A stretch of 12,247 nt of DNA from Verrucomicrobiales bacterium (GCA_024641425.1 JAHEDC010000156.1:1-12247); one strand, 5' to 3'; positions 1 to 12,247 are shown, counted from the first letter of the stretch. Program-made: numbers and translations. The notes: a model not told the origin generated them from the sequence alone.

Positions 1-1508
1 GCATCTTCGACTCGCTGAACTACACCCCGAACATGAAAGCCGCCATGGAGGCTGTCCGGGCCACCGAATTCGGCCTCTGCGAGGCCGCCATCTGCTATAC
101 CGGAGACATCCTCGATCCCAAACGCGACAAATACAGCCTCAACTACTACGTCGAACTCGCGAAGGAACTCGAGCGTATGGGCGCCCACATCCTCGCCATC
201 AAGGACATGGCCGGCCTCTGCCGGCCCTACGCTGCCTTCAAGCTCGTCAAGGCCCTCAAGGAAGCGGTCGGCATCCCCATCCACTTCCACACCCACGACA
301 CCAGCGGCCTGAACGCCTCGTCGATCCTCCAGGCCGCCGACGCCGGAGTCGACATCGCCGATGCCGCCCTCGCCTCGCTTTCCGGCTCGACCAGCCAGCC
401 CAACCTCAATTCCATCGTCGCCGCCCTCGAGCACACCGACCGCGCCACCGGCCTCGACCGCGAGACCCTCGACGAGTTCTCCGACTACTGGGAGCACGTC
501 CGGACTTACTATTTCCCCTTCGACACCTCGCCCCCCCACGGCTCCGCCGAAGTCTATCTCCACGAAATGCCCGGCGGCCAGTTCACCAACCTCAAGGAAC
601 AGGCCAACGCCATGGGCCTCGGGCACCGCTGGCCCGAGATCGCCCACTGCTATGCCGAGGTCAACCAGCTCTTCGGCGACATCGTCAAGGTCACCCCCTC
701 GAGCAAGGTCGTCGGCGACATGACGATGTTCCTCGTCACCCAGGGCATTCAGTGCGCCGACGTCCTCGACCTTCCGCCCGGCACCAATTTCCCGGAATCG
801 GTCGTCGACATGCTCGCCGGCGGGCTCGGGCAGCCCATGGGCGGCTGGCCTAAGGATCTGCAGAAAGTCGTCCTCGGCGACCGCGTACCCCTCACCGACC
901 GCCCCGGTGACCACGCCGCACCCATGGATCTCGAGCAGGTGCGCGGCGAGTTGGAGGCCAAGATCAAACGCGTTCCCTCCGACGACGACCTCTTCAGCTT
1001 CGTCATGTACCCGCAGGTCTTCCTCGAATACGAGGCCTTCCGGAAGAAATTCAGCGACGTCTCCGTCCTCCCCTCCAGCGCCTACTTCTACGGACTCAAT
1101 ACCGGCGAGGAGATCAGTGTCGATATCGAGGAAGGCAAAACCCTCTTCATCAAGCTCATTCACGTCAGCGAGGCCGACAGCGACGGGCAATGCACCGTCG
1201 TCACCGAACTCAACGGGGTCCCTCGCCACGCCCACATCGCTGACGCCCACATCAAACCCACCACCGAGGCCCGCGCGCAGGCCGATCCGGCGAACCCGAA
1301 TCACGTCGGCGCCCCCATGCCCGGCATGGTCACCGGCGTCGCCACCTCGGTCGGGAAGAAGGTCAAGGCCGGAGACAACCTCCTCACCCTGGAAGCCATG
1401 AAGATGTTCACCACCATCACCGCCCCCCAGGATGGCATCGTGGAGAAAATCACCGTCACCACCGGCGACCAGGTCTCGAGCAAGGACCTCCTCGTCGTCC
1501 TCAAATAG
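1..1508 (+). CDS. pyc: Pyruvate carboxylase, C-terminal ~500 aa (carboxyltransferase + tetramerisation + biotinyl/BCCP domains). 5'-partial: reading frame is open from position 3 and continues beyond the window edge.
   Basis: Translation IFDSLNYTPNMKAAMEAV...GDILDP...HILAIKDMAGL...IPIHFHTHDTSGL (carboxyltransferase TIM-barrel metal-binding motif) ...VYLHEMPGGQFTNL... ending in biotinyl-domain motif EAMKMF (Lys codon 1401-1403). Stop TAG at 1506-1508. Collinear with single-chain PC (or the PycB subunit of two-subunit enzymes). Confidence 0.9.
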   Translation, partial: IFDSLNYTPNMKAAMEAVRATEFGLCEAAICYTGDILDPKRDKYSLNYYVELAKELERMGAHILAIKDMAGLCRPYAAFKLVKALKEAVGIPIHFHTHDTSGLNASSILQAADAGVDIADAALASLSGSTSQPNLNSIVAALEHTDRATGLDRETLDEFSDYWEHVRTYYFPFDTSPPHGSAEVYLHEMPGGQFTNLKEQANAMGLGHRWPEIAHCYAEVNQLFGDIVKVTPSSKVVGDMTMFLVTQGIQCADVLDLPPGTNFPESVVDMLAGGLGQPMGGWPKDLQKVVLGDRVPLTDRPGDHAAPMDLEQVRGELEAKIKRVPSDDDLFSFVMYPQVFLEYEAFRKKFSDVSVLPSSAYFYGLNTGEEISVDIEEGKTLFIKLIHVSEADSDGQCTVVTELNGVPRHAHIADAHIKPTTEARAQADPANPNHVGAPMPGMVTGVATSVGKKVKAGDNLLTLEAMKMFTTITAPQDGIVEKITVTTGDQVSSKDLLVVLK

Positions 1509-1574: not shown

Positions 1575-2144
1575 TCATCCCCCTGGATTTACCGGTTTCG
1601 CCTGCCAGAAAGCCTCTAGAAGAGTCCTTTCCCGAGCTTTCCAATCGGAAGCCGAATCGCTGACCTCGACAACGACGATGCCTGCGCTCGAAAGCTTTTT
1701 TAAGACCTCCAGGCCCCGTGCGAAGGCGACTCCTATATTCGAGTCGATCAATAGTAATGGGATCGAGCCAGCCACGCGCCCCGTTTCGGCATAGGCCCGA
1801 AACTTCGCCTCCAGTTCTGAGAGCGAGACCACATCCTTATCCATTGCCACTTCATTCTCGCGCACCTGGATCGTAATTCCACACGCTGCAGAGCCCGGCG
1901 AATGAAACTCGATCTCCGCCGCAAGCTCCGGATGCCGGAAAAGAACCGGAGTCTCCCGGCACAGGACTCCCACCGAACAAAGGAAGTCCGAGAAATCCAG
2001 CGCATCCTCGTTCTCGATCAGAATGGAAGGCGAAGGGGGCGCTTCAGCCTTCGCCGCGGGTTCTTCGCCTGGTCGTGAACATGACACCAACAAAAATACC
2101 ACGCTCAAACCGATGGGCATCCAGTGCCTTACCACCTTTTTCAT
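1575..2144 (-). CDS. Predicted lipoprotein (189 aa): signal peptide + lipobox LLVSC, Pro/Ala-rich linker, then a ~130-aa globular domain. Last gene of the operon; start overlaps the stop of the upstream giant gene (ATGA).
   Basis: N-terminus MKKVVRHWMPIGLSVVFLLVS|C matches the SPase II lipobox [LVI][ASTVI][GAS]C. The start ATG (2144-2142) overlaps the stop TGA (2143-2141) of the 1690-aa ORF. A strong SD, GGGAGCGAAGG, lies immediately upstream. The segment PLLLIDSNIGVAFARGLEVLKKLSSAGIVVVEV loosely resembles the ExbD/TolR periplasmic-domain pattern; this is a tentative eyeball similarity only. Confidence 0.6.
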   Translation of the reverse strand: MKKVVRHWMPIGLSVVFLLVSCSRPGEEPAAKAEAPPSPSILIENEDALDFSDFLCSVGVLCRETPVLFRHPELAAEIEFHSPGSAACGITIQVRENEVAMDKDVVSLSELEAKFRAYAETGRVAGSIPLLLIDSNIGVAFARGLEVLKKLSSAGIVVVEVSDSASDWKARERTLLEAFWQAKPVNPGG

Positions 2145-5100
2145 CCTTCGCTCCCATCCTTCCTCACCTTCTGGCGAACCCTCGATTTCACATCAACGGG
2201 GAGTTTCTCCGGTACGTTAGCTTCGGGAGCGGCATCTTCACCGTCATGAACCGGCACGACCTTGATTTCAACATCCACCGGCACGGCCCTAATATTCGCG
2301 ATGATGCGCTCTAGTTTCGAAACGGTTTCGTCCGCGAGAGTCGCCGGTTTGGCCTGATGTTCCTGACCGAGGCGCAGGATGTCCTCGATCTTCTCCAAGC
2401 CTTCGGTGAAACCGGACATCTGGGCGACGACGCGACTGACCGGATCGCCCTCCGCGCCACCGAGCAGCTTCTGCTTGTTGAAAGCCTTCTTGATCTGTTC
2501 CCAGCGCGCGGCCTGCTTCTCGCTCTGGGCGGATTCGAGTTCGTAAAACTTCAGGAGGTTCGCCTCGGAGTCGGCGGTGAGGGTCTGGGATTCGTTCTCG
2601 TAGTGATTTCGGATCACGATTTCCACTTCCTCTGCGGTCATGAGGGCGAGGATTTTCTCAGCGATCCGGTTCATGTTCCGGTAACTCCCCTGTAACTTGA
2701 AGGAGGGCTCGGTACGATAAGCATCCTGTTGCGCGGCGGAGCGGATGTACTCCTGGTTCACCCTCAAAATGGTATCCCTTACGCGCATGAGTTTCTTCGT
2801 CACCGCGACCATTTCCTCGATTTCTTCGACGGTGTAGTTCCCTTCAAAATCGGCCCCTTCGCGGCTCCCGGTCGCGGCGATCTTCAGCACCGTGTAAACG
2901 TCCGCCTGACTGCGGCTCGCCATTTTGCCGAGCACGGGATTACTGGTGAGCGCGTTCTCGATGTAAGACGTTTCGAAGAAGGATGCGTTGCCGCCCACGA
3001 TGTCGCCGAGATTGTAGGTATCGGCGCGGTTCGCGAGCATATCCGGGATTTGGAAGCGCCCGCCGCTCTCGGTGTAAGGGTTCCCGGCCATGACAACCGC
3101 GACTTTCTTCCCGCGCAAATCGTAAGTGCGGGCCTTGCCCTTGTAGACTCCCTCCATCTTTCGCTGACCGTCGCAGAGGGAGATGAATTTTTGGAGAAAC
3201 TCGGTATTGCAGTGCTGGATGTCGTCGAGATAGATCATCACGTTGTCCCCCATCTCCAGCGCGAGGTTCAGTTTCTGCACCTCCTCCCGGGCACTGGCAT
3301 TCGGCGCTTCCGTCGGATCGAGTGATGTCACCTGATGCCCGATCGCGGGGCCGTTGATCTTCATGAAGGTGATGCCCAGACGATTCGCGATATACTCCAT
3401 AAGCGTCGTCTTACCGTAACCGGGCGGCGACACGAGCAGCAGGAGTCCCATGCGGTCCGTGCGGGTATCGGAACCGACAGTCCCGATCTGTTTGGCGAGG
3501 TTGTCTCCGATGATGGGAAGATAGACCTCGTCGATCAGTTTGTTCCGAACGAAAGAAGTCATCACTCGCGGCTTGAACTCGCCGAGGCGCATCGCTTCAC
3601 GCGTCTTTTCGACAAGCGTCTTTTTCAGGGCAACGAAACACTCGAAACGTGGAACTTCCCCGACCTCGAAGGCCCGAAGGCGCGCCACAAAGTGGTTGTA
3701 ATGGAAGTCGTAACTGCCTTCGACAATGAGCGGATGACTACCGGTCATTCCTTCGATTCTTGCGGATGAAAGCACATCGACAACGTCGCGCTTTTGATGC
3801 CCGCCGCGCACGAGATGGGCGGCGGCTTCCGCGACGTATTCCTGCGTCTCAAGCTTCGCGCTCGCGCCATAACCCGTCAGCCAGTCGGAAGCGATCTCGA
3901 AGCGCCCCACAACGTCCTCGCCCAAGGCCTCCCCGGCGGCGGCGAATTTCTTGTCCATCCTCCTTTCGGTCAACTGGATCTTAAAACCATGGAGTATGTC
4001 CGCTGCTTCCCGGCTGACCGTAAAGTTCGTCTCATCGACGAGTTCATCGAAGAGATAGGCGGCGGCTTCGACCGCATCCCCTCTCAGGAAAGCATGACGA
4101 ACGCAAAATCTCGCGATTTCAGACTCCAGTCGCTTTACGTATTCCACTTGCGGGCCACGACCGGCGAACATTCCGGACATCGTTCCATAGGAACGGATCC
4201 GCGCCGCCAACGCTTCCTTGCCCGCGTCGTTCCATTGCTCCCAAAAGAGTAGACCGAGCGCGCGGTCTTCCGGGGCATAGCGCAAAAGTCCGATGGCCTC
4301 ATGAATCCGAAGCAATTCCGCCAGAATCCGCGCGGCATCCTCGTCATGGACGCCTTTGACATAGCCTTCCGCGTAGCGCGGGGCCATGAAACGCTGGACG
4401 TCCTCCCGCAGCGACTCCGTGAGGCCGCCTCCAGACTGGAGATACTGCCAGGCGAGATACTCGGAACGGTAAACGCGGTTATTCTCCGAGACGACCTCCT
4501 GATCCCAGACCTCCCGCGTGGCATCGAAGGCAGGATCATCGATGCGCTCGAAGAAATTCGTGCCCGTGAGATGGTAGAACTGCGCGTCGTTCCGCCGCAC
4601 AACCGTCAGCTCCAAGGGCTGGGTATTGACCGAGAATTGGTGCTTCCCGAAACGGATGATGTTCTCGCAATCGACAAACAACTCCTGCCGATCCTTCAAT
4701 TGACGCACCGCGTCCTCGCGCGTTGCCTTGAGCTTCGTCTGGAGATCGTCCGCCTTCACCGAGTCGCCGAGCGCGGTCAATTCGCGAATGACATCGCGGA
4801 TCTTTTCGATCATGAGGTCGCTGGCCAGGTAACCATTGATCTCGTTGATCGTCTTGAGCCCGTCGAGACGGCGGCGCACGCTGGTCAGTATCCTTTCCGC
4901 TGACTGCTGGAGTGCGCCGGTCCGTTTGTTCCGCGACTCAACCAAGGCGACCTTGCGCGACTCGAAGGCATTGTAAATCTCCTCCCGCTTCTCGCCTAGT
5001 TGGGCGACATATTCGTCGAATTCGCTGAACTTCCCCTCCAGTTCCTCCAACTGGATCATGACCTTCGAGAGATACTCGTCGCACTTGTCCGGCTCGCCGC

Positions 5101-7213
5101 AGAGGTCGAGGTAGTTGACGACAGCCTGATTCAGCAACTTGATCTGCGCGCCGAACTGGGCCACACCCTCCGAGCGCGACAATTCGCGGCGGCGGCTTTT
5201 CAGCTCCACCCGAACCTGGTTCAGCGTCGCATAGATGGTCGAAACATCATCGATTATCTGGGTTGTCTGCGTCGAGTCGGCGATCTTGAGATTGCCGACG
5301 ATGTCGATGAGCATCTCCAACTCGCCCCCCCCGGCATTGAGCGCCTTTTCCACTTCGTCGGCCTCGATCGTCTTCGCCACTTTCGGCACCTGCTTCCGCT
5401 GCTCTTCAACCTGTCCCCGATAGGGATCAAGAGCCTCGGGTTTCAGGAGAAACTCAACACAATGTTGCGATATCCTCTCCGTGGTCTCGCCGAGACTCGC
5501 CTCCAGTTTGTCGACATGCTCCGGATCCGAATAACGGAGGTCGCGAAGCGAGATCGCCTCCCCTCGAGCGGCCCGAAGTTCGGCCAGGTAATGGACAAAA
5601 CCCATGATGTCGTCCGGCGGCGCATGGCTCGCCGCATTAACGAGCTTGGCCGCTTTCTTCGTAACCCGGTCGGTTTCCGCCTTCGTCGACAGGCGGAGCC
5701 GCCGCACCTTGTCGAACTCACCGATGGCGGCCTGAGCCGCCCCCTTGATCTCGACCAAGGCAACCTTCAGATTCTGTGCCTCCTCCTTCGCGATCCAGAA
5801 ATAGGCGTCCGCGACGTCGCCGGCCTTTTTCACCAGATCAAGGTAGAGTCCGGCGTAGCTGTCATTCTTTCCGATCAGGTTCAGGATTTCCTGACATTCC
5901 GCCATACACCGGACAATATCGGCGTTCCCGACCTTGTAGAGATAGGAATCCGTCCGCGCGTGCGGCTGGATATTCTCGTGCACGAAGGGAGTCTGCCACA
6001 CCTGGAGCGTATGATGTTTCTGCGGTTCGTCCTCGCATTTGAAGTAAACGAGCTCGCCGTTGGCGAAAAGCGAGTAGCCGTTGCAGATGATCGGCGTCTC
6101 GACCTGCTGCTGGATGATGTTATACGACAGGAGGATGTAGAGACCGGTGCGACGGTTGTAGAAAACGTGGAGATAGTCCTCGCCGTTGGGAGAAGCGATC
6201 CGGCGCTCGAAAAGCATGTCCTTGAGCCGGTTCCCGAAGATCTTGTGCTCACCGCTCTGCAGATAGTAGCCGTCGCTGAAAATAATCCCGTGATCGTCGG
6301 GCAGAAGGACACAGGAATGCTCGATCGCATCGACGCGCGTCACCGTCTGCGTCTTCTCGTTGAAGATGAGATTCCGGTAGAGCTTTTCCTGGTAGGGACG
6401 GATTTTGAGCAGGATAAGACTGCCGACGAGGGCGTAGAAGATCTCCGCGTCGTCCAACGTCTGGTCCGGCTCGGTGACATCCTCCCGGTAGATCCCTTCC
6501 CCGCTCGCGGTATTGTCTTCGATCTTGATCGTCAGGTCGCCGCCAACGGTTTCCACGAAGACGCGATCCTCGATGGAGATGTGCGGGAACTCCCCGCCGC
6601 GATGCATGTCGCGATGCGCCCGCTTCCATTCGAATTCCTGCTGAGGGGGGAAAAGGTATTCGTGGTCGAAACGGTTCCCGAGATACTCCAGGGTCCCGTC
6701 GTTCGGCCGCCGCCACTTGAAAGCCTTGATGTCCGTCACGTCCTTCCCAACGCGGAAGGCCATGTAAAGGTGCGGCCCGATGACCATGAACTTCGCGAAG
6801 ATCGTCTCCTTGTAATACTTGTAGAGATGATCGAAGTCGGTCAGGAAATCGCCACCCAGCAACTCGCTCGCGTCTTTTTCGGAGAAGGCATGGGTTTCCG
6901 CATCATGCTCGTAGAAGGCAAAGACATCCGAGATCGCGGTCGTCGAACGCAGACCGATATGGACGTTGTAGCCGAAAATGAAGCGACCGCCGCCGATGGC
7001 GATCATGTCGCGCGGCACGCAGTTGTTCGAGGTCGTGATGCGCTCGGTCGCGATAAGCGCCGTCGGTACGGCTCCGAAAACTTCCTGCCGGTCCGCGTTC
7101 AGTTTGTCGAGGCGAACGCGCAAATCCGCGCCATGCTTTTCCAGCCGGCTCCGAATAATCTCGTAGGCACCGCCTTCGAGCGTGGGTTGGGCGTTGGGAT
7201 CGGCGTCAGGCAT
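2141..7213 (-). CDS. Giant uncharacterised protein (1690 aa). N-terminal ~470-aa domain of unknown fold, central long coiled-coil/helical region (~aa 480-1200), C-terminal MoxR/CbbQ/NorQ-type AAA+ (AAA_5) ATPase module (~aa 1215-1410) and a ~280-aa helical, charged C-terminal tail.
   Basis: Walker A LLLLVSPPGYGKTTL (aa 1258-1272; GYGKTT at nt 3404-3421), Walker B NVMIYLDDIQHCN (nt ~3215-3238), sensor-1-like VVMAGNPY and an Arg-containing LANRAD motif. The order and spacing of these motifs are typical of AAA_5/MoxR-clade ATPases. The central part has long E/K/R/L/Q-rich heptad-like stretches (e.g. KVMIQLEELEGKFSEFDEYVAQLGEKREEIYNAFESRKVALVESRNKR). High GC3 is consistent with coding. The antisense 774-aa ORF on the + strand has no motifs and is rejected. 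Confidence 0.85.
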   Translation of the reverse strand: MPDADPNAQPTLEGGAYEIIRSRLEKHGADLRVRLDKLNADRQEVFGAVPTALIATERITTSNNCVPRDMIAIGGGRFIFGYNVHIGLRSTTAISDVFAFYEHDAETHAFSEKDASELLGGDFLTDFDHLYKYYKETIFAKFMVIGPHLYMAFRVGKDVTDIKAFKWRRPNDGTLEYLGNRFDHEYLFPPQQEFEWKRAHRDMHRGGEFPHISIEDRVFVETVGGDLTIKIEDNTASGEGIYREDVTEPDQTLDDAEIFYALVGSLILLKIRPYQEKLYRNLIFNEKTQTVTRVDAIEHSCVLLPDDHGIIFSDGYYLQSGEHKIFGNRLKDMLFERRIASPNGEDYLHVFYNRRTGLYILLSYNIIQQQVETPIICNGYSLFANGELVYFKCEDEPQKHHTLQVWQTPFVHENIQPHARTDSYLYKVGNADIVRCMAECQEILNLIGKNDSYAGLYLDLVKKAGDVADAYFWIAKEEAQNLKVALVEIKGAAQAAIGEFDKVRRLRLSTKAETDRVTKKAAKLVNAASHAPPDDIMGFVHYLAELRAARGEAISLRDLRYSDPEHVDKLEASLGETTERISQHCVEFLLKPEALDPYRGQVEEQRKQVPKVAKTIEADEVEKALNAGGGELEMLIDIVGNLKIADSTQTTQIIDDVSTIYATLNQVRVELKSRRRELSRSEGVAQFGAQIKLLNQAVVNYLDLCGEPDKCDEYLSKVMIQLEELEGKFSEFDEYVAQLGEKREEIYNAFESRKVALVESRNKRTGALQQSAERILTSVRRRLDGLKTINEINGYLASDLMIEKIRDVIRELTALGDSVKADDLQTKLKATREDAVRQLKDRQELFVDCENIIRFGKHQFSVNTQPLELTVVRRNDAQFYHLTGTNFFERIDDPAFDATREVWDQEVVSENNRVYRSEYLAWQYLQSGGGLTESLREDVQRFMAPRYAEGYVKGVHDEDAARILAELLRIHEAIGLLRYAPEDRALGLLFWEQWNDAGKEALAARIRSYGTMSGMFAGRGPQVEYVKRLESEIARFCVRHAFLRGDAVEAAAYLFDELVDETNFTVSREAADILHGFKIQLTERRMDKKFAAAGEALGEDVVGRFEIASDWLTGYGASAKLETQEYVAEAAAHLVRGGHQKRDVVDVLSSARIEGMTGSHPLIVEGSYDFHYNHFVARLRAFEVGEVPRFECFVALKKTLVEKTREAMRLGEFKPRVMTSFVRNKLIDEVYLPIIGDNLAKQIGTVGSDTRTDRMGLLLLVSPPGYGKTTLMEYIANRLGITFMKINGPAIGHQVTSLDPTEAPNASAREEVQKLNLALEMGDNVMIYLDDIQHCNTEFLQKFISLCDGQRKMEGVYKGKARTYDLRGKKVAVVMAGNPYTESGGRFQIPDMLANRADTYNLGDIVGGNASFFETSYIENALTSNPVLGKMASRSQADVYTVLKIAATGSREGADFEGNYTVEEIEEMVAVTKKLMRVRDTILRVNQEYIRSAAQQDAYRTEPSFKLQGSYRNMNRIAEKILALMTAEEVEIVIRNHYENESQTLTADSEANLLKFYELESAQSEKQAARWEQIKKAFNKQKLLGGAEGDPVSRVVAQMSGFTEGLEKIEDILRLGQEHQAKPATLADETVSKLERIIANIRAVPVDVEIKVVPVHDGEDAAPEANVPEKLPVDVKSRVRQKVRKDGSEG

Positions 7214-7388
7214 CGGTTTCTACCCCTTTTTCGTGATCGCGCGGCGTGGACTCCAACAACCGGCAAAGTTCGTCGAGTTCCGACATCTTCTCCTGACGAA
7301 GCCGCTTCGCATTCACGTCCATAGAGATCCATCCCATCACGATGGCAGCATACGGGACGATCTTTGTGCTTTCGCCCAAGTCAGTCAT
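7206..7388 (-). CDS. Candidate small protein (60 aa) between flotillin and the giant AAA+ gene. Short hydrophobic patch (IVPYAAIVMGWISM) followed by a charged helical tail. Stop overlaps the giant gene start by 8 nt.
   Basis: An ATG at 7388 is preceded by a purine-rich stretch GGAAAGGACGGAAGCGA, which is SD-like. Codons are GC3-biased (~70%). The 3' end ...ACC GAT GCC TGA overlaps the ATG of the 1690-aa ORF (ATGCCTGA), a geometry typical of translational coupling. It fills an otherwise 246-nt gap inside a tightly packed operon. Random ORFs of this length are common in high-GC DNA, hence moderate-low confidence. Confidence 0.35.
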   Translation of the reverse strand: MTDLGESTKIVPYAAIVMGWISMDVNAKRLRQEKMSELDELCRLLESTPRDHEKGVETDA

Positions 7389-7459
7389 TCGCTTCCGTCC
7401 TTTCCGTTGCGCGCGTTTCTGGATCGGCGGTAAGGTTCATCGCGTGGGGATTCTGCCTT

Positions 7460-9538
7460 TTACCCTTTCAGTTTCCCGACTACCTTCTCGGCCTTCTCGT
7501 GGGCAAGGCCAAAGCGGGTGGCGGCGTGGAGCATATCGGTGATCCCGGCGGTCGTCTTCTCATCCGGGCCAAGGGAGAGCATCTTCCCCAGCATGGCGCT
7601 GACGGTCAGGTTCTTCACGTCCTCGCTGGCGATGCCGAAGTCGGTGAGCCACTTGCCAAGCTGCGACTTGAAATACTCAGGATCCCCGTTGAAAAAGGTG
7701 TCCCGGACATCGGTAAGCGTGCGGCTGTTCTCGACCGCGCGGTCGACCGCCTTACCGCTCGTGATCGCCTGCGTAATCTTATCGAAGAACTGGGTTTCCC
7801 CGCCCACGATATCGATTTTCGCCGCCCGGAGGGCCTCGGCGACGACGCGGGCCTGCTCGGCCGCGATGAGCCGCTGGGCGTCGATCCCCGCCAGCTCGAC
7901 GGCTTTCGCCTTTTCCAGGTTGAGCTTGAATTCCTCGTGGCTTTGTCCGGCTTCCTCGAAGAGCTTCATCGCTCCGGCCTTTTCGGTAATACCCTTCGCC
8001 TCGGCAGCGAACTTCAGCTCGGACACCTTGGCCTCGGCGGTGCCCTGTTTCTCGGTCGCACCGGCGCGGGCCTCCAAGACTTGGGCCTCGCCTAATCCGG
8101 GCGCGGCGGTTTCAGCGGTCGTGGCTTCCGCAAGGAGGCGCTTCGCCGACGAATCCTTCTCGGCGGCGGCCTGACGGGCCTCGGCCTCGATGACAATCTC
8201 CTCGGCGTGGCGTTCGGCCGAAACCTTCGCCGCCTCGGCGTGCTTGATCTGCTCGTAGGCTTCCTGGTCGGCTTTCAGGATGGCCGCTTCCTTGTCCGCT
8301 TCCGCGGCCTTGATCCGCTTGAGCAAAGCCTCCTGCGCTTCTTTCTCGGCCCGGGTAATCGCGACCTGCTTCTCCCGGTCGGCGGTCGCGAAGGCCTCGG
8401 TGTCCTTGATCTTCTGTTCTTCAATGACCACGGTTTTCTCCAACGCGACGCGATCCTTGATCACTTCCTGGATATTCTTCTTCTCGATTTCGACCGATTT
8501 GTCCCGTTCGATTCCCTTCAGGGCGGTCAGGCGGTCGCGCTCGATGATCTCCAGGTCGCGGTCGCGAGTCACGCGCTCGTTCTCGACCGCTTCCGTCCGC
8601 TCCTTGTTTTTCAAGGCGACAATGATCTGCCGGTTCTTGTTTTCCTCCGCGATGGAAAGCTCCTCCTCGGTCGCGATGCGCGCCTGTTCGGACTTGAGCC
8701 GCTGTTCCTCCTGCACCTTCTTCGCGTCCGCCTGCTCCCGGGCCTGCACTTCCTGCACCTTCCTCGCCTGCTGGGCCTCGGTTTCGGCGAGTTGGCGCTC
8801 CAGTTCCAGGATGGCCTCGCGGGCCTCCACGTCCTGCTGTTTGATCACCCTCTCCTTGTCGCGCTGGATGTTGTTGCTCAGTTTCGCCTGCGCTGCCGTC
8901 AACTCGGTGATCTTCTTGATCCCTTCGGCGTCGAGGATGTTGTTCGGATCCATCGACGAGAGCGCCGTCTGTTCGAGATAATCGATGGCCGCGTCGTCGA
9001 GGACGTAGCCGTTCAGGTCGGTGCCGATGACCTTGAGGATCTCCTCCTTGAAGGTGTCGCGGTTCTCGTAGAGTTCGACGAAATCGAAGCGCTTCCCGAC
9101 CGTCTTCAAGCCCTCGGAGAACTTCGCGTCGAAGAGCGTCTCCAGTGTCCCGTGGTTGGAAGCCCGGTCGCAGCCGATCGATTGGGCGACCCGGATGACC
9201 TCCTTGGCCTCGTTGTTGATGCGGACGAAAAACGCGACCTTGATGTCGGCGCGGATGTTGTCCTTGCAGATCAGTCCGTTGTTCCCGCTCCGGTCGATCT
9301 CGATTCGTTTCACCGAAATGTCCATGTATTCCGCCCGATGAAGGATAGGGATTACAAGTCCGGCCGTGAAATAGACTTTCGTCCCCCCCTGCCCGTTCCG
9401 CACCAGGGCCTGCCCCTGCTGAACCTTGCGGTAGCATTTGACGATGAGGAAAAGGAATCCGATCAGGATCAGGACGCCGCCGCCGGCGCCAAAGCCAATG
9501 ACCTTCTGGGTGAATTGATCTGCGATGATGGTCTTCAT
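7460..9538 (-). CDS. SPFH/band-7 flotillin-family protein (692 aa), YqiK/FloT-like. N-terminal membrane-anchoring hydrophobic hairpin, SPFH domain, very long EA/KE-rich coiled coil and a flotillin-type C-terminal domain.
   Basis: N-terminus ...KVIGFGAGGGVLILIGFLFLIV (membrane hairpin). SPFH core ...RIEIDRSGNNGLICKDNIRADIKVAFFVRIN...DFVELYENRDTFKEEILKVIGTDLNGYVLDDAAIDYLEQT, which parallels the flotillin motif TVEEIYKDRQKF...SDL...G. About 350 aa of E/A/K/Q-rich coiled coil (EAQQARKVQEVQAREQADAKKVQEEQRLK...). C-terminal AEAKVSELKFAAEAKGITEKAGAMKLFEEAG is the flotillin signature region. Stop TAA 7460-7462; start 6 nt downstream of the yqiJ-like stop. Confidence 0.9.
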   Translation of the reverse strand: MKTIIADQFTQKVIGFGAGGGVLILIGFLFLIVKCYRKVQQGQALVRNGQGGTKVYFTAGLVIPILHRAEYMDISVKRIEIDRSGNNGLICKDNIRADIKVAFFVRINNEAKEVIRVAQSIGCDRASNHGTLETLFDAKFSEGLKTVGKRFDFVELYENRDTFKEEILKVIGTDLNGYVLDDAAIDYLEQTALSSMDPNNILDAEGIKKITELTAAQAKLSNNIQRDKERVIKQQDVEAREAILELERQLAETEAQQARKVQEVQAREQADAKKVQEEQRLKSEQARIATEEELSIAEENKNRQIIVALKNKERTEAVENERVTRDRDLEIIERDRLTALKGIERDKSVEIEKKNIQEVIKDRVALEKTVVIEEQKIKDTEAFATADREKQVAITRAEKEAQEALLKRIKAAEADKEAAILKADQEAYEQIKHAEAAKVSAERHAEEIVIEAEARQAAAEKDSSAKRLLAEATTAETAAPGLGEAQVLEARAGATEKQGTAEAKVSELKFAAEAKGITEKAGAMKLFEEAGQSHEEFKLNLEKAKAVELAGIDAQRLIAAEQARVVAEALRAAKIDIVGGETQFFDKITQAITSGKAVDRAVENSRTLTDVRDTFFNGDPEYFKSQLGKWLTDFGIASEDVKNLTVSAMLGKMLSLGPDEKTTAGITDMLHAATRFGLAHEKAEKVVGKLKG

Positions 9539-9544
9539 TGTTTT

Positions 9545-10225
9545 CTACGCCTCGTTGGTTTCGATTCTCGTTTTGCGGACAAAGTAGAGTCCGCGGCTTG
9601 GGTCTTCTTCGATGACAAGGCACTCGTCGCCCTTGACCAGGCGCGCGCTGCCCTCGTGGATTCTTGCATTGATGATCAATGGAGCCCCTTCCGTCGCGAT
9701 CTCCACCTGACCAAAAGTGGCCGACACGTCGGTGCTCGTGACAACGCCCGCCCGTCCCACCATCGGTTCCTGCTTCTCTTCCTCGCTCCGCAGCTTCCGC
9801 ATGACGGAGCGGAAGGGCGTGCTCACAACTTTCGTCACCAAAGCACTGACAAACACGCCCCCACTAAGGACAAGCAGCGCCGGAAGGATCGCGCCATTCG
9901 GATTGAGGAAATGGTTTCCCAACATCGAAATCATCCACAGGATCACCGAAAAAATGCTGAGGATCAACATGAAGGGCACATCGCCCACGTTCAGGAAACG
10001 AAGCACAGCCATGAAGGATCCTCCCGTACCGTCGGCATCCATCTCGTGGTCGATCTCATGATGCACTTCCGTGTCCACGTGCACGTCGTGGTCGACATCC
10101 ACATCAAAGGAATCCATATCCAGCGCCCCGAAGCTCACCCCGATCCAGTAAAGGACGACCGCTCCAAAGAGAATGGTCAGAGGTAGATTGTACCAGAGAA
10201 CCGCTTCTGTGATCAGCTCTTTCAT
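9545..10225 (-). CDS. YqiJ/NfeD-like inner-membrane protein (226 aa): N-terminal TM helix, Asp/His-rich loop, 2-3 further TM helices, C-terminal NfeD-type OB-fold (beta-barrel) domain. First gene of the operon and partner of the flotillin.
   Basis: Hydrophobic segments LPLTILFGAVVLYWIGVSF, VPFMLILSIFSVILWMISMLG and AILPALLVLSGGVFVSALV. C-terminal VGRAGVVTSTDVSATFGQVEIATEGAPLIINARIHEGSARLVKGDECLVIEEDPSRGLYFVRKT fits the NfeD short-form OB-fold (G-x-A-x-V ... G-x-V ... G..V.V). Gene order NfeD-like then flotillin, as in E. coli yqiJ-yqiK and B. subtilis yuaF-floT. Confidence 0.8.
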   Translation of the reverse strand: MKELITEAVLWYNLPLTILFGAVVLYWIGVSFGALDMDSFDVDVDHDVHVDTEVHHEIDHEMDADGTGGSFMAVLRFLNVGDVPFMLILSIFSVILWMISMLGNHFLNPNGAILPALLVLSGGVFVSALVTKVVSTPFRSVMRKLRSEEEKQEPMVGRAGVVTSTDVSATFGQVEIATEGAPLIINARIHEGSARLVKGDECLVIEEDPSRGLYFVRKTRIETNEA

Positions 10226-10259
10226 TTAATTGCCCGCAGGTTACCGGGGCTCGGACACT

Positions 10260-10300
10260 TTGGCGATTATAATTGGCTAGCCCGTTTGTATAATCGGTGG
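10260..10300 (-). promoter_or_regulatory. Possible promoter/operator for the minus-strand operon. The palindrome ATTATAAT (10266-10273) gives a TATAAT hexamer on both strands. A second TGTATAAT lies at 10287-10294.
   Basis: A minus-strand TATAAT (complement of 10266-10271) lies ~35-40 nt upstream of the yqiJ-like ATG (10225), an appropriate -10 position. No convincing -35 was found. The + strand extended -10-like TGTATAAT at 10287-10294 would point toward the 10540 gene. Confidence 0.25.
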
Positions 10301-10410
10301 CCAAGGAATCGCCCCCATCCTCGCGGGATGAAGTCTTCGTTGCAGAAAGTGGCCGAGCCTACGTCGCGCAGGACGCCCCCCCCGCCCTGTCCCTTCCTTC
10401 CCGTGGCTCA

Positions 10411-10500
10411 GATTATAAATATTCACGAAATGTCCTTAAAATTATAATATTTGTATTGCGCTGTGCATTTTTTGTAATAAAATGTAATTACCATATTTTC
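10411..10500. promoter_or_regulatory. About 90-bp AT-rich island (roughly 20% GC in a >60% GC background) in the divergent intergenic region. Likely promoter for the + strand gene at 10540 and possibly an UP/regulator-binding region for the divergent operon.
   Basis: Sequence GATTATAAATATTCACGAAATGTCCTTAAAATTATAATATTTGTATTGCGCTGTGCATTTTTTGTAATAAAATGTAATTACCATATTTTC. A + strand TTGTAA (10472-10477), 16-nt spacer and TATTTT (10494-10499) would put a TSS near 10506, ~34 nt before the ATG at 10540. ATTATAA(T) palindromes lie at 10412-10419 and 10441-10448. TGTAAT direct repeats at 10473-10478 and 10483-10488 are 10 bp apart. Confidence 0.35.
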
Positions 10501-10539
10501 CGTGATCTCACGACACCGCCTTGCCGACAGGCTGGAGTG

Positions 10540-11088
10540 ATGGAAACCGAGACGACTCAATCAAACGACCGCAACAAAATGAAAATGCAGCCCGCCCACT
10601 TCGGTACCCAATCCTTCAACATCGCCCGCATCTACGATACCGTGATCGATGTCAGCGAGGGTGAGATCGTCTTCGAGATCGAGCTTCGGCTTCGCCATAC
10701 CAACCAGCAGGTATTCTTCGGTATCCTGACCACGCCTCAGCCGGGGGCGGGAAGTTCTTCGATGGATTACGGGATCGGCGTAAGCATCGACACCCAGACC
10801 GGCACGGTGCGCGATGTGGTGAACGGCCAGGGAATCATCGGGCATCTGGAGTTGACCCCAATGGAGATCAACGAGTCGCTTTTTCTCTGCATCGAGGCGG
10901 AAAAACTAAACCGGATCTTCATTCCGAAGATTACCGTCGGGGAGGACAAAATGCTCCACCCCGCGCTCCACATCGAGCGGTGCACCCAGATGAGTCTTGT
11001 CGTCGGCACCACCGACATGTCGCGCGGGGCGATCTTCGAGAATCCTCACTTTGTCATCGCCCGGCGCCGGCCCAGCATTTCCGCCTGA
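10540..11088 (+). CDS. Hypothetical protein (~182 aa), probable SPRY/B30.2-like or similar beta-sandwich domain. Divergently oriented from the flotillin operon.
   Basis: The ORF-track ORF 10297..11088 runs through the AT-rich island, so the in-frame ATG at 10540 (GGAG at 10534-10537 just upstream) is taken as the start. An alternative is the ATG at ~10576. GC3-rich codons. Motifs GEIVFEIELRL...QVFFGILT...YGIGVSIDTQTGTV...SLFLCIEAEKLNRIFIPKITVGE...LHPALHIE resemble the SPRY pattern (YWEVE...G.G...SWG...GD.IG..LD...L.F..NG...LYP.V.L). The fold call is tentative. Confidence 0.55.
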   Translation: METETTQSNDRNKMKMQPAHFGTQSFNIARIYDTVIDVSEGEIVFEIELRLRHTNQQVFFGILTTPQPGAGSSSMDYGIGVSIDTQTGTVRDVVNGQGIIGHLELTPMEINESLFLCIEAEKLNRIFIPKITVGEDKMLHPALHIERCTQMSLVVGTTDMSRGAIFENPHFVIARRRPSISA

Positions 11089-11334
11089 GGCGGCGTGGGG
11101 AGAATCGGCCCCGCAATACATACGAAATCCGATTTCCACATAAATACCTATCCGGATCCCTCCGGAGCAGCAGCCGCGCCGCCATTATTTTCGGTCGCGG
11201 CTCTGTCTGTCTTGTGAAGACGGGAATTTGTGACGACCTGTGCAATCGAGATCCAGTCCTCCAGGAGCAGCGTGTTTCTCCAAACGGCCCCTTTCGGCCA
11301 CTTGCTGCTTTCGGGGAATGCGCCATAGTCGAGG
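11089..11334 (+). promoter_or_regulatory. 246-nt GC-rich leader upstream of mgtE with several stem-loops. Candidate cis-regulatory RNA (an Mg2+-sensing M-box-type riboswitch would be the obvious hypothesis) and/or promoter. Not confirmed.
   Basis: Hairpins seen: CCGCC-tga-GGCGG (11081-11093, stop codon in loop), GTGGGG-agaatcgg-CCCCGC (11095-11116), and AGCCGCG...CGCGGCT (about 11171-11203) followed by the pyrimidine-rich CTGTCTGTCTTGTG. I cannot verify M-box consensus by eye. Confidence 0.2.
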
Positions 11335-12247
11335 ATGATCCACTGGAAGCCGTTGCTCGATGCTCTCGAGGCTGGCGACGAACCCACCGTTCGCAGCCTG
11401 TCGGACGCGATGCATCCGGCGGACGCCGCCGCTTTCTTCGGCAGTCTGGATGATCGGGACCGGCACCGGATCGCCGGCTTCATGAGCGCGCAGGCGCTCG
11501 ACCTCGTCGCGACCTTTCTTGAGCCCTCCGAGGCCGCCGACCTTTTCCACGGCGTGCCCCACGCCCGTTTGGCCGACACTCTGAACGGCTTGCCCGACGA
11601 CATCCTCGTCGATATCCTTCAGGAACTCGAGCCCGAGCTCCGCGAGGACTACTTCCTTCTCCTCTCGGATGCGAAGCGCGCCCTCGCGGCCAAGCTGCTC
11701 TCCTTCCCCGAGGAATCCGCGGGCGGCAGGATGACGACCGCCATGGCCACCGTCCGCGAGGACATGACGATCCGGCAGGCCATCGACGAACTCGGGGCGA
11801 AGAAGGAGGAAACCGAGGTGCTCGCCCGGATTTTCGTCGTCGACGAGGAAGGCCATATCCTCGGCAAGGTGCGTCTGCGCGACCTCACCTTCAATCCCCG
11901 CAGCATGCTCGTCCGCGACATCATGGACGACGAGCGGCTCGCCATCAACGCCCACGCCGACCAGGAGGAAGCCGTCGCCATGATGCGGAAATACAACCTC
12001 ATCGCGCTTCCCGTCGTCAGCGACCACGGGCGGCTTCTCGGCGTCATCACGCACGACGACGCCATGGACATCCAGACCGAGGAATCGACCGAGGACATCG
12101 AGCGCATGAGCGCCATTGGCGGCACGCGGGACGACGAGGGCTACCTGCGCTCGTCCGTGGCGGCGCACCTACGCCGGCGCTTCTTCTGGATTCTCGGCCT
12201 GGCCTTCATCGGCATCCTTTCAGGGATCGTCCTCTACAATTTCGAGG
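11335..12247 (+). CDS. mgtE: Magnesium transporter MgtE, N-terminal ~304 aa (MgtE-N domain, tandem CBS domains, start of TM domain). 3'-partial: runs off the window.
   Basis: Translation MIHWKPLLDALEAGDEPTVRSLSDAMHPADAAAFFGSLDDRDRHRIAGFMSAQALDLVATFLEPSEAADLF... (MgtE-N helical domain), ...FPEESAGGRMTTAMATVREDMTIRQAIDEL... and ...RDIMDDERLAINAHADQEEAVAMMRKYNLIALPVVSDHGRLLGVITHDDAMDI (CBS pair with the MgtE-typical GG-x-MTT motif), then RRFFWILGLAFIGILSGIVLYNFE (first TM helix). No stop before the window end. The ATG at 11335 has GAGG immediately adjacent, which is poor spacing, so the true start could differ slightly. Confidence 0.88.
   Translation, partial: MIHWKPLLDALEAGDEPTVRSLSDAMHPADAAAFFGSLDDRDRHRIAGFMSAQALDLVATFLEPSEAADLFHGVPHARLADTLNGLPDDILVDILQELEPELREDYFLLLSDAKRALAAKLLSFPEESAGGRMTTAMATVREDMTIRQAIDELGAKKEETEVLARIFVVDEEGHILGKVRLRDLTFNPRSMLVRDIMDDERLAINAHADQEEAVAMMRKYNLIALPVVSDHGRLLGVITHDDAMDIQTEESTEDIERMSAIGGTRDDEGYLRSSVAAHLRRRFFWILGLAFIGILSGIVLYNFE

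Follow-up and report, generated by a model that had tools for sequence, protein, structure and literature searches.

A giant AAA+ protein encoded beside flotillin in a Verrucomicrobiales bacterium belongs to a widespread family mislabelled as DNA repair ATPase

A 12,247-nucleotide (nt) stretch of DNA from a Verrucomicrobiales bacterium (GCA_024641425.1, JAHEDC010000156.1:1-12247), referred to below, at its full length, as the window, encodes a giant AAA+ protein of 1690 amino acids (aa), whose gene forms a triad with the genes of a flotillin-like and a YqiJ-like protein. This giant protein is an ordinary copy of a widespread and already catalogued bacterial family, and family and operon have both been described before, while the database name of the family, 'DNA repair ATPase', is a mislabel without support in sequence or genomic context. 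Judged by domain content and gene linkage, the protein may well be an ATP-driven partner of the flotillin scaffold. The three genes are arranged as follows.

9545-10225, minus strand: first gene of the triad, YqiJ/YuaF (NfeD-like) membrane protein of 226 aa with ~3 transmembrane (TM) segments and a C-terminal soluble domain
7460-9538, minus strand: second gene of the triad, flotillin/YqiK-like SPFH protein of 692 aa with an N-terminal TM segment, the SPFH domain and a long Glu/Ala-rich helical region
2141-7213, minus strand: third gene of the triad, giant AAA+ protein of 1690 aa with DUF3686, DUF7902 and AAA

A first-pass annotation, made from the sequence of the window alone, had proposed the third of these genes, and open reading frame (ORF) calling finds it at the same coordinates as one uninterrupted minus-strand ORF. 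Every motif position given by that annotation is exact when mapped on the translation, and the two N-terminal peptides quoted there are located at aa 165-190 and 406-419. Overlooked at the time were the flotillin and YqiJ-like genes directly upstream, which are the main functional clue. A purine-rich AGGGG is located ~10 nt 5' of the ATG of the giant gene, and a hydropathy analysis of the giant protein gives no TM-like hydrophobic window, which is consistent with a cytoplasmic protein.

A catalogued family with a fixed domain layout

The N-terminal domain, at first regarded as unique and unrecognised, is Pfam DUF3686 (PF12458), matched over its full length (aa 30-472, profile positions 1-448 of 448, E 1.6e-186), and is followed by DUF7902 (aa 593-677, E 6e-27) and Pfam AAA (aa 1258-1380, 33 bits, E 8.5e-8, above the cut-off). 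The architecture, likewise taken to be singular, is the fixed layout of a large family with just these three Pfam domains, called 'DNA repair ATPase' at NCBI. In a collection of 5.8 billion proteins, at least 5,717 of the 8,000 candidates scored are homologues of the giant protein at E <= 1e-5; the best 120 are all 1630-1800 aa long, with 58-66% identity and an identical Pfam set, and those among them that carry a name are mostly 'DNA repair ATPase' from Verrucomicrobiota. The DUF3686 domain alone, compared with 1.84 billion cluster representatives, retrieves 739 clusters at E <= 0.001; the domain is N-terminal in every listed representative of 1600-1930 aa, and many of the shorter representatives are probably fragments.

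The family is spread over a broad range of bacteria. A pattern scan with one genome per species yielded at least 594 confirmed members from the 600 matches listed, which come from Verrucomicrobiota, Planctomycetota, Desulfobacterota, Bacteroidota, Kiritimatiellota, Omnitrophota and Clostridia. Relatives that are full-length (1600-1900 aa) and colinear are found in eight phyla or more, and members from five phyla align colinearly along their full length with 40-64% identity. Plasmid records searched by tblastn contain copies in Hymenobacter, Streptomyces, Nonomuraea, Deinococcus and Pseudomonas fluorescens (pQBR103) as well as in Proteus, Halomonas, Vibrio and Photobacterium, and a viral contig collection contains no relatives. 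A sequence search of the PDB gave no solved relative of the N-terminal domain.

For the label 'DNA repair ATPase', no basis was found other than the description line of PF12458 ('ATPase involved in DNA repair') and a generic P-loop similarity to RuvB. Membership in the BrxC/PglY, SMC or dynamin-like families, which the first-pass annotation had raised as possible affiliations, is not indicated either: the giant protein matches neither the BrxC/PglY profile in PADLOC nor dynamin in Pfam, and its single contiguous AAA+ module is accompanied by no Pfam match to SMC_N, AAA_23 or ABC. Pfam equally gives no match to MIT and Vps4_C. Six proteins of the window scanned with PADLOC show no meaningful match to a defence family; the giant protein reaches only IetA (7e-4) and mad8 (1.5e-3), both at the level of a Walker A motif.

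The operon across bacterial lineages

The context of the giant gene was surveyed by tblastn and ORF clustering in 87 loci, of which 71 extend 2.5 kb or more upstream of it. In 76 loci, a flotillin-like gene directly precedes it, invariably in the same orientation and with a median gap of 244 nt; this holds for 68 of the 71 loci with sufficient upstream sequence. The YqiJ-like gene comes before the flotillin gene in 63 loci, and the triad is preceded by a PspA gene in 19 and by a CesT/Tir-like gene in 17; CesT/Tir and PspA genes together were encountered in Bacteroidota and on a plasmid of Pseudomonas. On the downstream side of the giant gene, no gene was found to be conserved in the 87 loci. 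The triad extends over Verrucomicrobiota, Bacteroidota, Planctomycetota, Desulfobacterota, Clostridia, Actinomycetota, Deinococcota and Gammaproteobacteria, and was annotated in P. fluorescens pQBR103, Hymenobacter, Streptomyces, Deinococcus and Oceaniferula.

By its sequence profile, the 692-aa neighbour is a true flotillin/YqiK homologue: the profile of its family (A4) aligns with E. coli YqiK over 416 columns (hhalign 99.9%, E 1.1e-36), homologues are named 'SPFH domain-containing' or 'flotillin family' at NCBI, and hydropathy indicates a single TM segment at aa ~11-40. Band_7 of Pfam is matched by one of six family members (9e-11), and the protein of the window itself has no Pfam or NCBIfam match even at E <= 10. 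This subfamily is ~140 aa longer than YqiK and is covered poorly by current profiles. The 226-aa protein matches Pfam YqiJ_N (28.6 bits, cut-off 23), is colinear with E. coli YqiJ (BLASTP, E 0.002) and has ~3 TM segments according to hydropathy. Pairing of YqiJ/YuaF proteins with flotillin-like SPFH2 proteins has been described previously (Hinderhofer et al., 2009, PMC2636767).

The complete arrangement is also on record. An in silico study reported an operon of CesT/Tir, PspA, YqiJ/YuaF (3TM), Band-7/flotillin and a 'Betapropeller+Coiled-coil+AAA-ATPase' protein with Dokdonia donghaensis as exemplar, and found abbreviated operons without PspA to be widespread (Ravi et al., 2024, mSystems, PMC11237479; preprint 2020). 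The giant gene of the window agrees with the last gene of this operon in domain order, in size class and in following the YqiJ-like and flotillin genes; the window represents the abbreviated form without PspA, and our Bacteroidota loci reproduce the full layout including the divergent helix-turn-helix (HTH) and protease regulator. Nothing essential differs; the window copy is Verrucomicrobiota-like, with a lineage-specific tail and an unconserved 189-aa ORF at its stop codon. A literature search for DUF3686, PF12458 and 'DNA repair ATPase' together with flotillin found nothing.

Several loci show additional features around the operon. A divergent regulator with HTH_3 and Peptidase_S24 domains (LexA-like) stands beside the CesT/Tir-PspA-YqiJ-flotillin-giant operon in 17 Bacteroidota loci (e.g. 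L003, 3610-4395), which suggests control by a self-cleaving repressor. On pQBR103 (L002, 998-6122), the triad is preceded by genes for YjfI, PspA/IM30, a rhomboid protease, DUF2491, DUF350, DUF1190 and a glutathionylspermidine synthase-family protein, and this full yjf-type cluster connects the giant ATPase with PspA operons associated with polyamines, as described by Ravi et al. In Oceaniferula spumae (L001, 16938-21092), Multi_ubiq/Prok-E2, Prok-JAB/ThiF and BubE genes and the gene of a large deaminase follow downstream of the giant gene in a cluster that looks like a defence-island neighbourhood; neither the window nor its closest relative shows a Prok-E2/JAB/BubE-type cluster.

Small genes of selfish appearance have repeatedly been inserted into the gap between flotillin and giant gene, which measures 246 nt in the window (7214-7459). 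In seven Verrucomicrobiota loci the gap is taken up by PDDEXK_3 genes, insertions being recorded at L001 (9410-9784), L009, L012, L014, L046, L053 and L054, and two Hymenobacter loci carry endonuclease-like ORFs there, which, by eye only, we take to be of the DUF559 type. The gap of the window holds only an unconserved 60-aa ORF on the minus strand (~7206-7388), which overlaps the start codon of the giant gene and looked coupled to it; this candidate was rejected, having no counterpart in the 86 other loci.

Predicted anatomy of the giant protein

AlphaFold2 (AF2) models of two overlapping parts, aa 1-520 (predicted local distance difference test, pLDDT, 86.7; predicted template modelling score, pTM, 0.83) and aa 491-1690 (pLDDT 78.6, pTM 0.48), together with the Pfam matches, divide the protein as follows.

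5798-7126, minus strand: DUF3686 domain (aa 30-472), a helix and ~28 beta strands, propeller-like (aa ~52-407)
4676-5944, minus strand: helical rod (aa ~424-846) of spectrin-like bundles, including DUF7902 (aa 593-677, nt 5183-5437)
3806-4660, minus strand: small beta domain (aa 852-890), then a helical globular region (aa 916-1136), from AF2; varies between lineages
3014-3481, minus strand: AAA+ alpha/beta core (aa ~1245-1400) with Walker A, beta2-alpha2 loop, Walker B, sensor 1 and Arg finger
2294-3013, minus strand: helical lid and C-terminal domain (aa 1401-1640), AF2 helices; conserved
2144-2293, minus strand: C-terminal tail (aa 1641-1690), disordered with pLDDT <50; lineage-specific

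The three-part anatomy of a distal beta domain, a helical rod and an AAA+ head, as envisaged in the first-pass annotation, is thus backed by the structure predictions. In the model of the N-terminal part, a long helix (aa 16-46) precedes the strands at aa 52-407, which are compatible with a seven-bladed propeller, and the helices which begin at aa 424 pack on the N-terminal helix. The stalk is considerably shorter than the continuous coiled coil of ~700 aa assumed before: the all-helical rod is predicted to span only ~aa 424-846 and is succeeded by globular domains, and structure comparison matches its helices of 13-58 residues to spectrin triple-helix repeats, so that the models describe ~420 aa of spectrin-like bundles. 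In line with this, a heptad scan of our own making, crude and indicative only, flags 40% of aa 424-846 (~1.8 standard deviations above shuffles) and finds nothing above shuffles in aa 847-1243. A short beta/helical segment sits between aa 1136 and the AAA+ core in the AF2 model. The AAA+ module itself, thought to form the C-terminal end, is indeed located in the C-terminal quarter but not at the terminus, as ~240 conserved helical residues and the tail of ~50 aa follow; the tail (aa 1641-1690) is found in less than half of the homologues.

An AAA+ module that is MoxR-like in fold

Within the core, Walker A (GYGKTT, aa 1265-1270, nt 3404-3421), an invariant beta2-alpha2 loop (NGPAIGH, nt 3335-3355), Walker B with its DD (MIYLDDIQ, aa 1326-1333, nt 3215-3238), sensor 1 (AGNP, aa 1376-1379, nt 3077-3088) and the Arg-finger motif (ANRAD, aa 1394-1398, nt 3020-3034) succeed each other, and the predicted structure places the Walker motifs in an AAA+ fold with a beta-hairpin preceding sensor 1. 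In the lid domain, the motif QGSYRNMNR (nt 2666-2689) is a candidate sensor 2, which we take it to be by its likeness to a RuvB motif.

The proposed affiliation with the MoxR/CbbQ class is favoured by fold comparison, in which the module is a genuine AAA+ fold whose closest neighbours are the MoxR-type proteins CbbQ and NorQ (MoxR/AAA_5 group), but the sequence evidence is ambiguous on the clade. Pfam scores the AAA region highest with AAA (33 bits), followed by AAA_5 (26 bits, above the cut-off) and RuvB_N (24 bits), and all six AAA-region sequences scanned match AAA, AAA_5, RuvB_N and AAA_22. With hhalign, RuvB is reached at 94% over 74 columns, limited to the generic Walker A-Walker B stretch, FtsH at 84% (34 columns) and RavA, a MoxR protein, at 5%; in sequence searches of the PDB and in searches with an AAA-region profile, only the Walker A/beta2 stretch aligns, to classical AAA proteins and RuvB. 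Between beta2 and alpha2, the place expected for a helix-2 insert beta-hairpin, DSSP on the AF2 model gives a loop without strands (aa ~1288-1305). After sensor 1, the pattern NP-x-E-x-x-G-x-F-x-IP-x-x-L-x-NR resembles that of MoxR proteins.

MoxR proteins are stand-alone proteins of ~250-300 aa which are paired with a von Willebrand factor A (VWA) partner. That no VWA domain is apparent in the operon, as stated in the first-pass annotation, is borne out by the lack of any Pfam match to VWA in the seven window ORFs scanned, and a VWA gene is likewise not among the gene families which recur in the 87 loci. Because sequence comparison is ambiguous and a VWA partner is missing from the window and does not recur in related loci, the AAA+ module is MoxR-like in fold and is not filed as a member of the MoxR family. 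It differs from CbbQ and NorQ in being embedded in a protein of 1690 aa, in its pairing with flotillin instead of a VWA partner, in the DD of its Walker B and in leaving the RavA profile unmatched.

Conservation, expressed as the frequency of the top residue across 83 full-length homologues, is highest in the AAA+ core (mean 0.8-0.9). At least 95% conserved are SPPGYGKTT, NGP.xG of the beta2-alpha2 loop, Y.DDIQH, MAGNPY, NRAD and QGSYR, the last within the motif RTEPxFKLQGSYRNMN, which reaches the same level and is invariant across the five phyla aligned. The next most conserved stretches are located in the propeller (aa 211-260, GGDLTIKIEDNT...GEGIY) and in DUF7902 (aa 631-660), while aa 991-1200 are variable (0.31-0.49) and fewer than half of the homologues have the last 70 residues. 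The conservation of the AAA+ motifs argues that the ATPase is under strong purifying selection, and competence as an ATPase is indicated by Walker A and B, sensor 1, Arg finger and beta2-alpha2 loop being at least 95% conserved in a CbbQ/NorQ-like fold.

Neighbouring genes in the window

Outside the triad, the window contains the following features.

1-1508, plus strand: pyruvate carboxylase, C-terminal ~500 aa, truncated at the window edge
1575-2144, minus strand: 189-aa lipoprotein ORF, its ATG overlapping the stop codon of the giant gene by 4 nt (ATGA)
10297-11088, plus strand: 263-aa ORF without family match, inside a region of low GC content
11329-12247, plus strand: MgtE-type magnesium transporter, N-terminal part (MgtE_N and CBS), truncated

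The neighbourhood of the triad consists of housekeeping genes in the window as well as in its closest relative. The 189-aa ORF has a signal peptide with a lipobox-like LVSC and, below the cut-off, a weak similarity to ExbD (E 0.0024); considered as a fourth member of the operon, it was rejected, as no homologue exists in 86 related loci including the closest relative, where its position is taken by an oppositely oriented carbonic anhydrase gene. GC content drops to 0.53 at ~9500-11150, compared to 0.57-0.65 elsewhere in the window, the dip lying upstream of the YqiJ-like gene; it could represent the triad's promoter region or what is left of acquired DNA. An Rfam scan of the window gave no match.

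Discussion

What the analysis shows is the predicted domain anatomy, ATPase motifs that are highly conserved and a tight linkage to flotillin, and SPFH cages are known to work with AAA+ machines, such as HflK/C with FtsH. On sequence grounds, we give about an even chance to the view that the giant protein is a cytoplasmic, ATP-driven partner or remodeller that acts on the flotillin scaffold on the inner side of the cytoplasmic membrane. The single AAA+ module would oligomerise into a ring, as AAA+ proteins of such a fold generally do, while the propeller-like DUF3686 domain on its spectrin-like arm would bind the flotillin assembly or a client held by flotillin; where pspA is part of the operon, PspA polymers would be a further candidate target. 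ATP hydrolysis might then assemble, remodel or dismantle the membrane-associated assembly during envelope stress. We infer the physical interaction, the formation of a ring and binding by propeller and rod, and equally which substrate is acted on and in which direction the reaction runs. The linkage of PspA and CesT/Tir genes in some loci counts for the role in envelope stress and matches the operon described in PMC11237479.

A number of observations weigh against a remodelling partner of flotillin. Linked genes need not encode interacting proteins, and no experimental work on any member of the family was found in the literature. Three of the 71 loci with sufficient upstream sequence have no neighbouring flotillin gene (L029, L051, L056), pspA is missing from the window, and E. 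coli K-12 possesses yqiJK without the giant gene; as the E. coli pair works without the giant protein, the latter would be an accessory rather than an obligate partner. Walker B is always DD and never DE, both in the alignment of five phyla and in the 83 homologues, which may point to a slow, regulated, switch-like ATPase rather than a processive unfoldase, and the loop at the pore-loop position, PAIGH, is without the usual aromatic residue.

A more specific form of this proposal is possible but doubtful, namely that the giant protein is the missing bacterial disassembly or remodelling ATPase for SPFH/flotillin cages and, if linked to pspA, for PspA polymers. A ring of AAA+ modules with propeller-tipped arms would grip the cytoplasmic face of flotillin, and ATP would open, recycle or load the assembly. 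Polymers of the ESCRT-III/PspA type are remodelled by the AAA+ protein Vps4 in archaea and eukaryotes. In bacteria, a Vps4-like ATPase appears to be absent, none being known to regulate PspA/ESCRT-III-type polymers (2025 review, PMC7619361). With Vps4, which acts on the ESCRT-III superfamily including PspA, the giant protein might be functionally analogous, as an ATPase encoded beside a membrane-remodelling polymer in the 19 loci with pspA; it differs in that no MIT domain is detected, in an AAA+ clade that appears to be different and in the lack of pspA from the window. The resemblance to FtsH in the HflK/C cage lies in the possible way of working, an AAA+ machine coupled to an SPFH scaffold; FtsH, however, is a membrane-anchored classical AAA protease with HflK/C as SPFH partner, whereas the giant protein has neither TM segment nor protease domain and is paired with an SPFH protein of the flotillin/YqiK type. 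If the proposal is true, the giant protein would be a functional analogue of Vps4 or FtsH with an unrelated architecture.

Alternatively, and close to the motor or ruler on which the first-pass annotation speculated, the protein could be a passive, ATP-gated tether, scaffold or 'ruler', in which rod and propeller keep flotillin assemblies or some other structure at a fixed distance and the AAA+ module serves as a nucleotide switch for oligomerisation that performs no mechanical work. The spectrin-like rod, the DD in Walker B and the non-aromatic pore-loop position all accord with this explanation, which we nevertheless regard as unlikely, since sensor 1, Arg finger and candidate sensor 2 are strictly conserved, as is typical of proteins that hydrolyse ATP, and since the length of the rod is not especially constrained, the central region being variable.

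A function in anti-phage defence or abortive infection, with the flotillin/YqiJ pair sensing the perturbation of the membrane by a phage and the giant protein acting as transducer or effector, would accommodate the copies on megaplasmids, the Prok-E2/JAB/ThiF/BubE and deaminase genes beside the Oceaniferula giant gene, the small selfish genes inside the operon (PDDEXK_3, and the presumed DUF559-type ones) and the divergent HTH and S24 peptidase regulator which adjoins Bacteroidota copies. It is made quite unlikely by the lack of a meaningful PADLOC match among the six window proteins scanned, of relatives in the viral contig collection and of a recognisable effector domain (nuclease, protease, pore-former) in the giant protein, and by the housekeeping neighbourhood in the window and its closest relative; the broad, chromosomal, single-copy-looking spread with a fixed architecture is more like that of a housekeeping stress module.

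A genuine DNA repair ATPase of the SMC/SbcC/Rad50 type is very improbable. In its favour are the description line in Pfam, the product name at NCBI, the weak local matches to the P-loop region of RuvB and the LexA-family regulator gene near Bacteroidota copies; on the other side, Pfam detects no ABC/SMC head, nuclease partner or DNA-binding domain, the split ABC head that flanks the antiparallel coiled coil of SMC/SbcC/Rad50 proteins, which work with a nuclease or kleisin partner, is missing, the 74-column RuvB similarity is generic and the conserved neighbours are membrane proteins. Just as improbable is a canonical MoxR maturation chaperone with its VWA partner encoded elsewhere in the genome, which the AAA_5 match above cut-off would allow, given that the window has no VWA gene and that none is among the recurrent families of the 87 loci, that the RavA probability is only 5%, that no strands form a hairpin at the helix-2 insert in the model and that the conserved partner is flotillin. 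Dynein and midasin, finally, concatenate six AAA+ modules, as opposed to the single one of the giant protein, and their global TM-scores of ~0.1 are negligible.

The window itself adds one further copy to a described family and operon, and nothing new is found in it. Correction of the label 'DNA repair ATPase' would avert wrong inferences on members of the family. As the family is widespread, strictly conserved and linked to flotillin operons, it is an obvious candidate for the energy-consuming component of flotillin membrane systems, and for bacterial flotillin it provides an attractive candidate ATPase partner.

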